Positions 9,613-25,880 of a DNA stretch of 32,000 nt are shown here, piece after piece. The DNA lies in NCBI RefSeq assembly GCF_000423105.1, contig NZ_KE383978.1:502790-534789 (forward strand), in the 5' to 3' direction. The notes below the pieces were generated by a model. The model was not told where the DNA came from and ran no database searches. It saw only the letters and a list, made by a program, of their open reading frames with translations. The position numbers and the translations under genes were made by a program. The stretch comes from Halalkalibacillus halophilus DSM 18494. Lineage in GTDB: Bacteria > Bacillota > Bacilli > Bacillales > Alkalibacillaceae. Every line of letters starts with the position of its first letter. Within the stretch, counting starts at the first letter, position 1.

Positions 9613-9939
9613 ATGAATAAAAAATTATTACTAGCTATTATTGGATTAATCCTTATCGTTGCATTAGCTGCATGTGGTGGGGATGATGAAGGTTCTGGTG
9701 ATGGTGATTCAGGCGAGACTGCGCAAGGTGAAGAGCTGTTTCAACAAAACTGTGCACAATGTCATGGTGGTGACCTTGAAGGCGCTGCTGGACCATCGTT
9801 AGAAAATGTAGGTGCAACATATGAGCAAGATGGGATCGTACAAATCATTCAAGAAGGAACCGGCGCAATGGCTCCAATTGATGATGTAAATGAGGAAGAA
9901 GCAAATGAAATAGCAGAATGGGTACTTACTCAGGAATAA
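9613..9939 (+). CDS. cccB: Membrane-anchored (lipoprotein) cytochrome c551
   Basis: Signal peptide with the lipobox LAAC, an acidic linker and the heme motif CAQCH. AGGAGG at 9600-9605 lies 7 nt before ATG 9613. Position matches B. subtilis cccB. Confidence 0.88.
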   Translation: MNKKLLLAIIGLILIVALAACGGDDEGSGDGDSGETAQGEELFQQNCAQCHGGDLEGAAGPSLENVGATYEQDGIVQIIQEGTGAMAPIDDVNEEEANEIAEWVLTQE

Positions 9940-12024: not shown

Positions 12025-13722
12025 ATGTTGAAAAAGTTCATACCTGTTTTCCTATTTTTCATTGTAGCGGTTGGAGCTTTTACTCTATCAGGAAATGATA
12101 GGGTAGAGGCAAACCAATCAATTGATGAAATTGATGGAGAAATGCAGGAAGTAGAGAAAGAAAAAGAAAGTATTAATTCTGACCTAGGTGAATTAGAAAA
12201 CAGATTAAATCGTATTAAGTCCCAGCAAAATGATACAAAGGAAGAAATCGACGGTTTAAACTACGAGATTGAAGAAAATGAAATTGAAGTAGAACAAAAG
12301 CAACTAGAAATTTCTAAAACGGAAAATGAAATTAGACAACTAGAAACGGAAATTAAACAGTTAGAAGCAGAGATTGTCGAACTAGAAGAAGAAATTAAAG
12401 AACTAGAGAATGAGATTGAAAGACTAGAAAATCGCATAGTCGAACTAGAAGAAGAAATAGTAATTACAGAAGATAGAATTGAACAACGTGAAGACTTACT
12501 TAGAGAACGTTTAAGAACCCTTCAAAAAAATGGTGGGTCCGTTAAATACTTAGAAGTTATAGTTGGTTCAAAGGATTTCGGTGATTTCATTACAAGAGCT
12601 TCAGCGGTTAGCAAAGTTATGGATCAAGACCAAAACATAATTCATGAGCATTTTGCAGATATGCAGTACTTAGAAGAGACGAAAGTGGAAGTCGAAGAAA
12701 CAAAAGTAGAAGTTGAAGAATCAAAAGTAGCTGTAGAAAATAATAAAGATCAAGTTGCACAAAACAAAACACAAGTAGAATCTAATAAGGTAGAAACAGA
12801 AGACAAACGTTCTACTTTAGTTACTCAAAAAGAAGATTTAGAAACAGCGATTGCTAGTTTAGAAGGAACTCGTGAAGAGGAAGAAGTTGCCTTAGCAAGT
12901 TTAGAAGGCGATGAAGAAGAAGTTCATGAAATCCAACTTTCACTTGAAGAGGAAGAAGAATTATTAAGTCAACGTGAAGGTGTATTAGAACAAGCGAAAC
13001 AACAAGCAATCGAAGAAGAGCGTAAGCGTCAAGAAGAATTAGAAAGACAAAGACAAGCTGAGCTTGAAGAACAGCGTCAGCGAGAGCAAGAAGAAAGAGA
13101 AAGAAGAGAACGTGAAGAACGAGAAGCGAATAATTCATCAAATAGTGGTTCTTCCAATAGCGGAAACGCTGGTAATTCATCAAATGGAGGATCATCTAAT
13201 AGCGGAAACTCTGGTAGTTCCTCAAACGGAGGATCATCCAATAGCGGTGGGTCGGAACAAGCATCACCAGCTCCAGCGCCTGCACCACCTAAATTCTTGA
13301 CACCATCATCTGGTTACATATCTTCACACTTTAATCCAAATCGTATGGATCCTGTGTATGGGGTAGTTAGACCACATAATGGTACAGATATTGCGGCACC
13401 TAGAGGAACAAGTGTTAAATCTTCAGCTTCAGGTGTAGTCTATCGAGTCACTTCAAACTGTTCAGAAGGTAATAAATCTTGTGGCGGTGGCTTCGGTAAT
13501 GTTGTATTCGTAACGCATTTTGTTGATGGCCGTCAGTATGACACGGTATATGCTCACTTACAATCTGTAAATGTAGCACAAGGCCAGTCTGTTTCTCAAG
13601 GACAACAAATAGGTACGATTGGTTCGACGGGTGCTTCCAGTGGGCCGCACTTGCACTTTGAACTTCACCCTGGTGGTTATCGTAACCCTGTAAATCCAAT
13701 GGGTTACATTAGCGCACCTTAA
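12025..13722 (+). CDS. Secreted coiled-coil peptidoglycan metalloendopeptidase, peptidase M23 family (candidate FtsEX-controlled hydrolase)
   Basis: AAGGAGG lies at 12008-12014. The protein has a signal peptide, ~350 aa of heptad-rich E/K/L/Q coiled coil, an S/N/G plus PAPAPAPP linker and a C-terminal M23 domain with HxxxD (PHNGTDIA) and HxH (GPHLHFELH). No terminator separates it from ftsX. Confidence 0.88.
   Translation: MLKKFIPVFLFFIVAVGAFTLSGNDRVEANQSIDEIDGEMQEVEKEKESINSDLGELENRLNRIKSQQNDTKEEIDGLNYEIEENEIEVEQKQLEISKTENEIRQLETEIKQLEAEIVELEEEIKELENEIERLENRIVELEEEIVITEDRIEQREDLLRERLRTLQKNGGSVKYLEVIVGSKDFGDFITRASAVSKVMDQDQNIIHEHFADMQYLEETKVEVEETKVEVEESKVAVENNKDQVAQNKTQVESNKVETEDKRSTLVTQKEDLETAIASLEGTREEEEVALASLEGDEEEVHEIQLSLEEEEELLSQREGVLEQAKQQAIEEERKRQEELERQRQAELEEQRQREQEERERREREEREANNSSNSGSSNSGNAGNSSNGGSSNSGNSGSSSNGGSSNSGGSEQASPAPAPAPPKFLTPSSGYISSHFNPNRMDPVYGVVRPHNGTDIAAPRGTSVKSSASGVVYRVTSNCSEGNKSCGGGFGNVVFVTHFVDGRQYDTVYAHLQSVNVAQGQSVSQGQQIGTIGSTGASSGPHLHFELHPGGYRNPVNPMGYISAP
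12673..12798 (+). repeat. Six tandem 21-nt (heptad) repeats inside the M23 gene
   Basis: In-frame units EETKVEV / EETKVEV / EESKVAV / ENNKDQV / AQNKTQV / ESNKVET. Confidence 0.8.
13132..13257 (+). repeat. Three tandem 42-nt repeats encoding the Ser/Asn/Gly linker of the M23 protein
   Basis: NSSNSGSSNSGNAG / NSSNGGSSNSGNSG / SSSNGGSSNSGGSE. The DNA units start at 13132, 13174 and 13216. Confidence 0.8.
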
Positions 13723-24573: not shown

Positions 24574-24587
24574 TAGATTAGATTAGG

Positions 24588-24620
24588 AAACGATTTCTGC
24601 TGTGCAGAGATCGTTTTTTC
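24588..24620 (+). terminator. Rho-independent terminator after yvlD
   Basis: 13-bp stem AAACGATTTCTGC / GCAGAGATCGTTT with one G:U pair and a TGT loop, then a T-run. Confidence 0.85.
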
Positions 24621-24660
24621 ATTTGATGGAAGGTGGTTTCAGGAGAAGCTGGAGGGCGCG

Positions 24661-24797
24661 GTTGCCGGCGAACGGAAGTAGGAATCGGGTGGGGGGCAGT
24701 TGGATGCCGGCATAAGAACTCCCTAATCAGGTGTGAAAAGTTACATGCCGGCATCCAACCCAATTTGCCGGCAAAGATAGTCGGATGCCGGCAAACG
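24661..24797. repeat. Array of five TGCCGGC(A/G) palindromic motifs in a GC-rich non-coding island
   Basis: GCCGGC cores sit at 24664, 24706, 24747, 24767 and 24787, giving spacings of 42, 41, 20 and 20 bp. TTGGATGCCGGCAT (24700-24713) and ATGCCGGCATCCAA (24745-24758) form a perfect 14-bp inverted repeat. TTTGCCGGCAAA (24764-24775) is a perfect 12-bp palindrome. Confidence 0.85.
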
Positions 24798-24879
24798 AGC
24801 CTCATTTTCAAATCCACCAACTTATAAAATGTTAATAAAGTTGTAAAATAGAATTGATTTTCCTAGTTCGTATCAGATG

Positions 24880-24906
24880 TTGGTTATGGTAAAGTTATGG
24901 TATAGT
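24880..24906 (+). promoter_or_regulatory. Candidate extended -10 sigma-A promoter for the hprK operon
   Basis: TGgTATAGT (TG at 24898-24899, TATAGT at 24901-24906). The nearby TTGGTT (24880-24885) has only a 15-nt spacer. Confidence 0.3.
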
Positions 24907-24944
24907 TGTTGCTGTATATAATGTTTTACATAGGAGGGGAGCGG

Positions 24945-25880
24945 ATGGTTAAAGTCCGTACGCAAGATTTAATAAAGCGTTTTGATTTGGAATTAGTTGC
25001 CGGCGTCGATGGAGTTCATCATGAAATTGTGACGAGTGATATCTCACGACCAGGTATGGAGATGGCTGGTTATTTTACGCATTATCCAAAAGAGCGACTA
25101 CAATTGATGGGTCGCACGGAACTTTCATTTCTGTATGATTTAACAGAAGAAGAAGTGAAGGACCGGATGACGAATTTATGTACAGATGTAACACCTGGTA
25201 TTGTGATTACTAGAGGGATGGAAGTACCTCCTTCTTTAATCGAAGCTGCTAATGAAGCAGGCGTACCTGTTATGCGCTCCCCGTACAAGACAACCCGCGT
25301 CATCAGTAGATTAACTACTTTCTTAGAATCAAAATTCGCACCGACCACAGCCGTTCATGGTGTGTTAGTGGACGTGTATGGGATTGGTGTACTGATTACA
25401 GGCGCAAGTGGTATCGGTAAAAGTGAAACGGCGCTTGAACTTGTAAAGCGTGGTCACCGACTTGTAGCGGATGATAATGTGGAAATTAAACAAGAAGATT
25501 ATGATACGTTAATTGGGAATCCTCCAAATTTAATTGAGTATTTACTTGAAATTCGTGGGCTAGGAATCATCAATGTCATGACGTTATTTGGAGCGGGAGC
25601 AGTAAGAAACTTTAAGCGGATTTCCTTAGTTGCTCATTTAGAAACTTGGGAGGCGGATAAACAATACGATCGTTTAGGTTTAGATGAGGACACGATGAAA
25701 ATAATGGATGTGAACTTACCGAAAGCTATCATTCCCGTACGTCCAGGGCGTAACTTATCCGTTATCATTGAGGTTGCCGCAATGAATTTCCGATTGAAAA
25801 AAATGGGGATTAATACAGCGGAGGAATTTTCAGAGCGATTAAATAAGGTAATGGATGTCAATCAAGATGATGTCGATTAG
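24945..25880 (+). CDS. hprK: HPr kinase/phosphorylase
   Basis: [20 protein letters not shown] aligns with the B. subtilis HprK N-terminus. It has the Walker [26 protein letters not shown] and the [11 protein letters not shown] motif. AGGAGG at 24932-24937 lies 7 nt before ATG 24945. Confidence 0.96.

Follow-up and report, generated by a model that had tools for sequence, protein, structure and literature searches.

We analysed a window of 32,000 nucleotides from Halalkalibacillus halophilus DSM 18494 (contig NZ_KE383978.1, positions 502,790 to 534,789), in which a short, GC-rich island occupies the spacer between yvlD and hprK. The window is a conserved housekeeping stretch, comprising fliD/fliS, hpf, secA, prfB, ftsEX, the gene for a PcsB-like hydrolase, ctpB, uvrBA and a DUF1806 gene, together with a PIG-L protein gene, yvlB/yvlD-like genes, hprK, lgt, yvoD, ppaX, yvoF and glpK; the hprK product shows 100% identity to the HPr kinase/phosphatase of H. 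halophilus. The initial annotation, made from the letters of the window, had placed the island in a spacer of about 370 bp counted from the yvlD terminator. This length holds if counted from the yvlD stop, which lies 371 bp from the hprK start; counted from the end of the terminator, it is only about 325 bp.

On its left, the spacer of the island is bounded by the intrinsic terminator of yvlD, which proved to be real: positions 24580-24625 fold at -20.1 kcal/mol (z -6.1), with a stem formed by 24591-24600 and 24604-24613 followed by UUUUUU, and relatives have a terminator at the equivalent position. On its right, about 80 bp downstream of the island edge and about 38 nt 5' of the hprK ATG, lies an extended -10 box that we infer to be the hprK promoter. 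In this region TTATGGTATAGTTG aligns with TTATGATATAGTTA in H. sediminis and Aquisalibacillus elongatus, and with TTGTGATATAGTT in Alkalibacillus haloalkaliphilus and A. aidingensis, and an extended -10 of the form TGnGATATAGT or TGgTATAGT is found some 40-90 nt before the start codon in six species, that of Alkalibacillus sp. S2W being degenerate. An 11-nt tandem repeat (GTTATGGTAAA, 2.3 copies, window positions 24883-24913) overlaps the box. We also considered a sigma-54 promoter served by an activator array, given that TGGTAT-N5-TTGCT at 24898-24913 has a fitting spacing; however, TGGTAT is homologous to TGATAT in the relatives and was thus read as a sigma-A extended -10 box.

The island itself stands out by composition and by its repeated palindromes. 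Its G+C content, first estimated at about 57%, is 0.575 over positions 24641-24800, the highest of all 160-bp windows in a stretch with a mean of 0.384. GCCGGC starts at 24664, 24706, 24747, 24767 and 24787, exactly as annotated, once within TGCCGGCG and four times within TGCCGGCA (sites 1 to 5, Table 1), and elsewhere in the 32 kb it occurs only once, in hprK at 24999. TGCCGGCR produced 10 strand-matches against 0.52 expected from dinucleotide shuffles, indicating that its recurrence is non-random. Because A or T stands beside TGCC in all ten half-sites, the conserved core is a 10-nt palindrome, WTGCCGGCAW, which is found in both orientations within the island.

The intersite spacings of 42, 41, 20 and 20 nt, which agree with those first reported, place the five sites near-perfectly on a 20.5-nt lattice (R = 0.99, equalled by 2 of 20,000 random site sets). 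The further claim that all sites face the same side of the DNA holds only approximately, since their phases on a 10.5-bp helix drift (0, 0, -34, -69 and -103 degrees). Sites 2 and 3 lie in the arms of an inverted repeat that is indeed perfect, although 15 nt and not 14 nt long, with 31 nt between its arms, and site 4 was confirmed as a perfect 12-nt palindrome. Sites 1 and 5 show 88% identity over 16 nt and 87% complementarity over 15 nt. Conversely, the gapped inverted repeat that had been thought to bound the island does not clearly exceed chance, scoring 10 against 7.3 ± 1.5 in shuffles (p about 0.08). Other identities for the sites were considered and rejected: a cluster of NaeI restriction sites (GCCGGC), given that the site is not avoided elsewhere (1 seen, 1.2 expected); an integron attC, in which GTTGGAT/ATCCAAC match the GTTRRRY/RYYYAAC cores but have the wrong order and context; and a Noc/ParB-type site, the resemblance to ATTTCCCGGGAAAT being limited to site 4.

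The lattice consists of eight 20.5-nt positions, with palindromes at positions 0, 2, 4, 5 and 6. The empty positions at 24683 and 24725 are filled by a half-unit 'B' motif, AATCRGGTGKG, indicating that the island is more than a scatter of palindromes and forms a degenerate tandem array of ~41-nt units. The two B motifs are spaced by exactly 42 nt, agree at 9 of 11 positions and fall opposite each other in the alignment of units u1 and u2. The sequence YRSWTGCCGGCR opens all four units and AGT closes u1 to u3. Unit-to-unit alignments contain 20-27 identical positions of ~41, the direct-repeat families D1-D3 of the island have spacings of 41, 40, 42 and 20, and self-identity peaks at lag 41 (0.373, the maximum over lags 10-69, at about the 95th percentile of shuffled maxima). 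The earlier picture of the island was therefore incomplete, having missed both the 41-nt units and the clade-wide 21/42-nt arrays described below.

Table 1. Coordinates of the island, of the features on either side of it and of the spacers and arrays of relatives. Positions are those of the window unless a sequence of a relative (L-number) is named.
Feature	Sequence	Position	Strand	Remark
Degenerate tandem array, island proper	window	24659..24822		four ~41-nt units; G+C 0.575
Unit u1	window	24659-24700		42 nt
Unit u2	window	24701-24741		41 nt
Unit u3	window	24742-24781		40 nt
Unit u4	window	24782-24822		41 nt
Site 1, TGCCGGCG	window	24663..24670		context CGGTTGCCGGCGAACG
Half-unit B motif, AATCGGGTGGG	window	24683..24693	+	lattice position 1, between sites 1 and 2
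Site 2, TGCCGGCA	window	24705..24712		inside left arm, 24699-24713, of perfect 15-nt inverted repeat
Half-unit B motif, AATCAGGTGTG	window	24725..24735	+	lattice position 3
Site 3, TGCCGGCA	window	24746..24753		inside right arm, 24745-24759, of perfect 15-nt inverted repeat
Site 4, TTTGCCGGCAAA	window	24764..24775		perfect 12-nt palindrome; half-unit B lattice position of unit 3
Site 5, TGCCGGCA	window	24786..24793		context CGGATGCCGGCAAACG
yvlD intrinsic terminator	window	24585..24619	+	GC-cored hairpin 24585-24613, then U-run to 24619
hprK sigma-A promoter (inferred), extended -10 box TGgTATAGT	window	24898..24906	+	from alignment with relatives
hprK ribosome-binding site GGAGGGGAG and ATG	window	24932..24947	+	start codon at 24945
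yvlD-hprK spacer, H. sediminis				181 bp; 28% G+C, island absent
yvlD-hprK spacer, Alkalibacillus sp. S2W				406 bp; GC-rich element of ~145 bp, bounded by terminal inverted repeats of 15 nt
yvlD-hprK spacer, A. aidingensis				657 bp; array of about 9 copies of a 42-nt (2 x 21) unit
yvlD-hprK spacer, A. haloalkaliphilus				274 bp; 42/21-nt array
yvlD-hprK spacer, Aquisalibacillus elongatus				464 bp; oppositely oriented homologue of the S2W element; also five units of 21 nt, core ATCCGTCAGTAAA
Tandem array	L178	9398-9793
Tandem arrays	L179	1937-2113, 9757-9879, 11841-11917
Tandem array	L122	2025-2074		by eye to about 2150
Tandem array	L121	19697-19779
Tandem arrays	L231	9821-9925, 13989-14101, 19596-19777

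Two open reading frames (ORFs) do exist across the island (24633-24827 on the + strand and 24578-24820 on the - strand), and, as noted initially, neither has a plausible Shine-Dalgarno sequence. The motif falls in differing frames, and no homologue of either ORF was found, whether among 5.8 billion proteins (word-indexed search) or among 1.84 billion representatives (full HMMER scan), which bears out the view that the repeat is non-coding. The translations were also searched to detect spurious ORF calls in other copies of the island, with no match.

GC-rich islands in AT-rich genomes often correspond to RNA genes, and the palindromes could in principle be the helices of a small RNA or of a cis-acting RNA, either an hprK 5' leader or a yvlD 3' element. 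Whichever strand is taken, positions 24621-24838 fold better than shuffled sequences (z of -3.4 for + and of -4.8 for -). The hairpin at 24695-24763, formed by sites 2 and 3, reaches -32.1 kcal/mol on the + strand and -35.2 kcal/mol on the - strand (z -5.8 and -6.4), sites 4 and 5 form another of -16 to -18 kcal/mol, and 24655-24803 folds into nested hairpins of -65.9 kcal/mol (z -4.6), with sites 1 and 5 outside and sites 2 and 3 inside. However, because the cores are mutually complementary, the island folds as nested hairpins on either strand, and such folding is automatic with repeated palindromes and thus not evidence for an RNA. Rfam gave nothing at the gathering thresholds and only noise at E values up to 10, as anticipated; the best match overlapping the island was IsrM, with 16 bits against a gathering score of 376. 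No sigma-70-like promoter was found 5' of the island on either strand, and no terminator 3' of it. Additionally, the conserved -10 box lies downstream of the island, indicating that this is not in the hprK leader, contrary to one of the initial proposals, and the absence of homologues in any relative leaves no covariation support. We thus consider an RNA gene or element highly improbable.

To place the island in its clade, we compared the locus in five relatives. The order uvrB-uvrA-DUF1806-PIG-L-yvlB-yvlD-hprK-lgt is kept in all of them, but the yvlD-hprK spacer is hypervariable. The island is absent from the five, including the congeneric H. sediminis: GCCGGC occurs in none of their yvlD-hprK spacers (0/5), and local alignments of the island with these spacers are at chance level. 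The spacer of H. sediminis is ~190 bp shorter than that of H. halophilus, with a divergence too great to fix insertion junctions. Since relatives without the island keep the same promoter, the island is probably not needed for hprK expression.

The relatives carry arrays of their own, and these share a period with the island. All intergenic tandem arrays in ~105 kb of the five relatives (~140 kb with the window) have a period of 20-21 or 40-42 nt, the 42-nt period corresponding to two related 21-nt halves. Besides the yvlD-hprK spacer, arrayed spacers in the relatives are located upstream of uvrB and glpK and downstream of lgt and trxB, with periods of 20, 21, 40, 41 and 42 nt. Within the spacers of the six species, exact 8-mers recur almost only at lags of 20-21, 40-42, 60-63 and 81-84; the sole strong lag off the multiples of ~21 nt is 66 (23 counts), from one H. 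sediminis spacer (L121). In the window, the 8-mer lags of 40, 81, 20, 41 and 61, with counts pooled over its spacers, match the spacings of the island sites. The consensus units show no significant similarity to one another, indicating that the period is shared and the sequence is not. In a protein search, an ORF in the A. aidingensis array found a spurious plant match only, and that array is thus also locus-specific. The island lies on its 20-21-nt lattice in the terminator-to-promoter spacer, where three relatives have 21/42-nt arrays, and appears to be the local version of a habit common to such spacers in Halalkalibacillus, Alkalibacillus and Aquisalibacillus.

The 21-nt and 42-nt periods also appear at window positions 12322-13247, inside the gene for the PcsB-like M23 peptidase (12025-13722); these repeats are coding (7 or 14 codons, in a coiled-coil region) and do not belong to the intergenic class. 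A ~120-nt block just 3' of trxB is conserved in three species (L180 9640-9775, L231 19440-19565 and L121 19515-19640), with the layout GCTGTAACACG...GGTACAAT...TTGACCCCCTTTATT...CACAGGTAG-loop-CTACCTGTGTTTTT and a terminator-like hairpin at its end. It had no Rfam match at gathering thresholds in the two sequences scanned (L121 and L231), and may be a small unannotated gene, a leader or an RNA.

Seeding at new loci must be open to at least some of these repeats, as indicated by the 12-mer TTATCAGCGCTC of A. haloalkaliphilus, which makes up arrays with a period of 20 nt at two loci separated by 10 kb and on opposite strands (L179 2041-2112, +, and 11842-11913, -; 7 matches against 0.05 expected, the contig ending in the second array). 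Many units of the relatives contain one A-tract per 21 nt, which, and this is only an idea, would give phased curvature. A tentative and rather doubtful extension is that the island belongs to a clade-wide class of intergenic arrays that has yet to be described and whose quantum is ~21 nt, or two turns of the helix. Such a class would span Halalkalibacillus, Alkalibacillus and Aquisalibacillus and hold array-specific cores on a fixed lattice, kept by a dedicated process or a phase-sensitive function, for which the candidates would be a lattice of protein and, upstream of promoters, curvature of the DNA; in H. halophilus the cores would simply happen to be GC-rich palindromes. If this were true, a period shared by at least 10 arrays of unrelated sequence would imply a mechanism and not a coincidence. 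Likewise, a genome-wide quantum of ~21 nt would suggest that either a specific mechanism of mutation or a constraint under selection, for instance helical phasing upstream of promoters, shapes intergenic DNA in these halophilic Bacillaceae.

The island could, alternatively, be a small dispersed element, mobile or copied and pasted, such as a miniature inverted-repeat transposable element (MITE), a repetitive extragenic palindrome (REP) or REPIN, or an ERIC-like imperfect palindrome, inserted in the yvlD-hprK spacer and with further copies in the genome. Its composition is foreign to the surroundings (57.5% against 38% G+C), the entire block folds as nested inverted repeats (sites 1 and 5 outer, 2 and 3 inner), and the congeneric H. 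sediminis has neither the island nor the ~190 bp by which its spacer is shorter. The yvlD-hprK spacer also accepts small mobile elements, as suggested by the GC-rich element of S2W and its inverted homologue in Aquisalibacillus elongatus, and the repeat family present at two loci in A. haloalkaliphilus fits dispersal as well. Of the three explanations in the initial annotation, REP- or MITE-like insertion is the closest to our findings, but the hallmarks of a MITE were not clearly seen: the terminal inverted repeat is not significant (p about 0.08), and the edges show no convincing direct repeat that could be a target-site duplication.

The ~145-bp element just mentioned, present in two genera (L122 9732-9876 and, on the opposite strand, L231 at about 9615-9745), has 15-nt terminal inverted repeats (GTTGTTGAATTATGA / TCACAATTCAACAAC) and the conserved blocks GACTCCWGCAGGAACAGCACGAG and AGCCGTGCCTGCGGAAAGCG. 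Rfam gave no match to this element, which has the look of a MITE family.

Searches for copies of the island were equally negative. The H. halophilus sequence covered amounts to 38 kb, that is, the window plus 5.9 kb from Logan contigs, and contains neither a second island nor any further TGCCGGCA. A scan of a genome collection for three TGCCGGCA with 8-38-nt gaps returned at least 119 chance matches, in high-GC genomes. The arms of the central hairpin gave 54 matches in metagenomes, all of them unrelated (coding repeats or chance), and BLAST of the island against these found nothing; a scan of viral contigs gave 50 matches, all high-GC noise, and neither plasmids nor phages showed similarity to the island. 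No transposase or RAYT gene occurs in the window, although one could lie elsewhere in the genome; nor does any regulator, cas or restriction gene, as judged from Pfam scans of 20 window ORFs together with the precomputed Pfam families of uvrB, uvrA and the hprK-to-crh genes on the Logan contig. Because coverage of H. halophilus is 38 kb and not the whole genome, these negatives weigh little, and we regard a dispersed element as possible, if clearly not the likeliest account. The ends of two Logan contigs inside the island (24687 and 24721) were considered as a repeat signal and discarded, since contigs of this run end in ordinary coding DNA too, in uvrA at ~19269, and its breaks are thus uninformative on repetition. 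The gap between these contigs (L001 and L123) is 33 nt long (24688-24720) and contains a G-run and the left hairpin arm; the Logan assembly of Aquisalibacillus elongatus is also broken within the yvlD-hprK spacer, at the start of L232.

A regulatory role was the remaining initial proposal. Here the island would present phased sites for a dimeric protein that recognises WTGCCGGCAW and binds cooperatively upstream of hprK, along what is roughly a single face of the DNA, perhaps with a loop to GTTGCCGGCG within hprK (24997-25006). The survival of five perfect 8-bp palindromic cores in diverged units, the A or T at ±5 in 10 of 10 half-sites and a spacing of two helical turns would all suit such a protein, yet nothing is conserved at the orthologous promoter in the five relatives, H. 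sediminis having no island and the others differing in sequence. Moreover, the sites lie at about -123 to -246 relative to the inferred hprK transcription start, well upstream of the usual operator positions, while the promoter itself is conserved; their phase drifts by ~100 degrees over the array; and the window has no regulator gene. Arrays in the relatives share the period but differ widely in their cores, so that a single sequence-specific protein would hardly account for the whole class.

As for the site within hprK, it speaks for such an array in that it contains the only other GCCGGC in the 38 kb, 212 bp downstream at the 5' end of the gene, shares a 10-mer with site 1 and, at codons 18-21, has the sole GCC-GGC among 42 Ala-Gly dipeptides in the genes of the window. 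However, relatives have GCC GGT/GGA or GCT GGA at these codons; being one synonymous step from GCC GGT/GGA, GTTGCCGGCG is probably due to chance. Together, these observations make an operator array improbable, and control of hprK by the island unlikely. What stands from the initial interpretation is a non-coding feature at the DNA or RNA level, whereas its readings as an operator and as a leader or small RNA are not supported.

We favour, with a probability of roughly one half, the reading of the island as a non-coding, lineage-specific and partly decayed tandem array situated between the yvlD terminator and the hprK promoter. It draws on the layout, lattice and position of the island, on its not being present in relatives, on the finding of neither a coding nor a known-RNA signal and on the period shared by the clade. 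Such arrays would arise by local duplication and change their copy number in place, through replication slippage or unequal exchange, would occasionally be seeded at a second locus, and their units would diverge with time. The palindromic cores may have been kept perfect by mutual templating (hairpin or quasi-palindrome correction), by a binding or structural need, or by both. The likeliest physical effect of the island would be a passive one on yvlD read-through transcripts or on single-stranded DNA, where nested hairpins of about -66 kcal/mol could form a structural barrier or insulator.

Several observations weigh against this partly decayed array. The main weakness is that five cores remain perfect inside diverged units, contrary to neutral decay, which indicates some constraint, whether a protein, a structure or a repair bias. 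Outside the ~10-nt cores the similarity between units is weak, the lag-41 signal reaching only about the 95th percentile of shuffles, and Tandem Repeats Finder (TRF) did not call the island as a tandem repeat, so that the lattice and the two B motifs are the chief grounds for the label 'tandem array'. The island is also far more GC-rich than the local DNA, which would fit an imported element too. Finally, its membership in a clade-wide class would follow from period and position, and the arrays of relatives are mostly non-palindromic and many of them not GC-rich.

On its own, the island is of modest significance: a species-specific repeat, for which annotation as a gene, a riboswitch or a CRISPR would be inappropriate. 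More broadly, the spacer upstream of hprK draws repeat elements in this clade as well as in Staphylococcus, and arrays of this kind would serve as handy strain-typing loci.

Among known systems, a CRISPR array, with repeats of at least 23 nt, unique spacers and cas genes, was rejected, for the conserved core of the island is 8-12 nt long and the window has no cas domains. Plasmid iterons are similar in having five repeats, a ~21-bp lattice and adjacent AT-rich DNA; unlike them, the island has palindromic and not direct repeats, no rep gene, no plasmid similarity and a chromosomal housekeeping setting. The REP, BIME and REPIN families, mobilised by RAYT, have been described mainly in Proteobacteria. 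The island resembles them in its short GC-rich palindromes in inverted pairs, sites 2 and 3 forming a 61-nt REPIN-like hairpin, and in its place in extragenic DNA just 3' of a terminator, but it lacks their conserved 5' tetranucleotide, has no RAYT in the window and exists as one copy in 38 kb.

Bacterial minisatellites, or variable-number tandem repeats, including the 'false-CRISPR' tandem repeats (PMC5294841), consist, as does the island, of head-to-tail units of ~20-40 nt in a non-coding spacer, and relatives have clean arrays with the same period in the same place. In contrast, the units of the island are too diverged for TRF and have kept only the 10-nt palindromic core, which would be unexpected if they were neutral.

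When the literature was searched for the motif, for the genus and for 21-bp arrays, the only pertinent papers were those on the STAR elements of Staphylococcus (Cramton et al. 2000, as described in PMC3532100 and PMC5294841), which are the closest described analogue. STAR elements are GC-rich, intergenic 14-bp repeats with the consensus T(G/A/T)TGTTG(G/T)GGCCC(C/A) and spacers of at least 40 bp, and one of their loci is upstream of hprK (PMC3532100). The window contains no copy of the consensus when up to 2 mismatches are allowed, the STAR 'start signature' was not found at the island, and the two cores are unrelated. Likewise, the island core, WTGCCGGCAW, is palindromic and present in either orientation, unlike the STAR motifs, which are direct repeats; the island has an extra half-period of 20 nt, belongs to another taxon and is known from one locus in 38 kb of H. 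halophilus, while the STAR motif occurs at many loci. Nevertheless, both are short, unusually GC-rich intergenic repeats of an AT-rich Firmicute that recur at ~40 nt with locus-specific intervening sequence, the island cores doing so at 42, 41 and (20 + 20) nt. In both, the repeat number varies and loci are not conserved between species. The classic STAR locus, directly upstream of hprK and downstream of uvrA, even lies in the same neighbourhood. The island thus resembles STAR in its architecture and is not a member of that family. We would count it among the intergenic short-repeat arrays, and the clade-wide 21/42-nt quantum seems the part most worth following.

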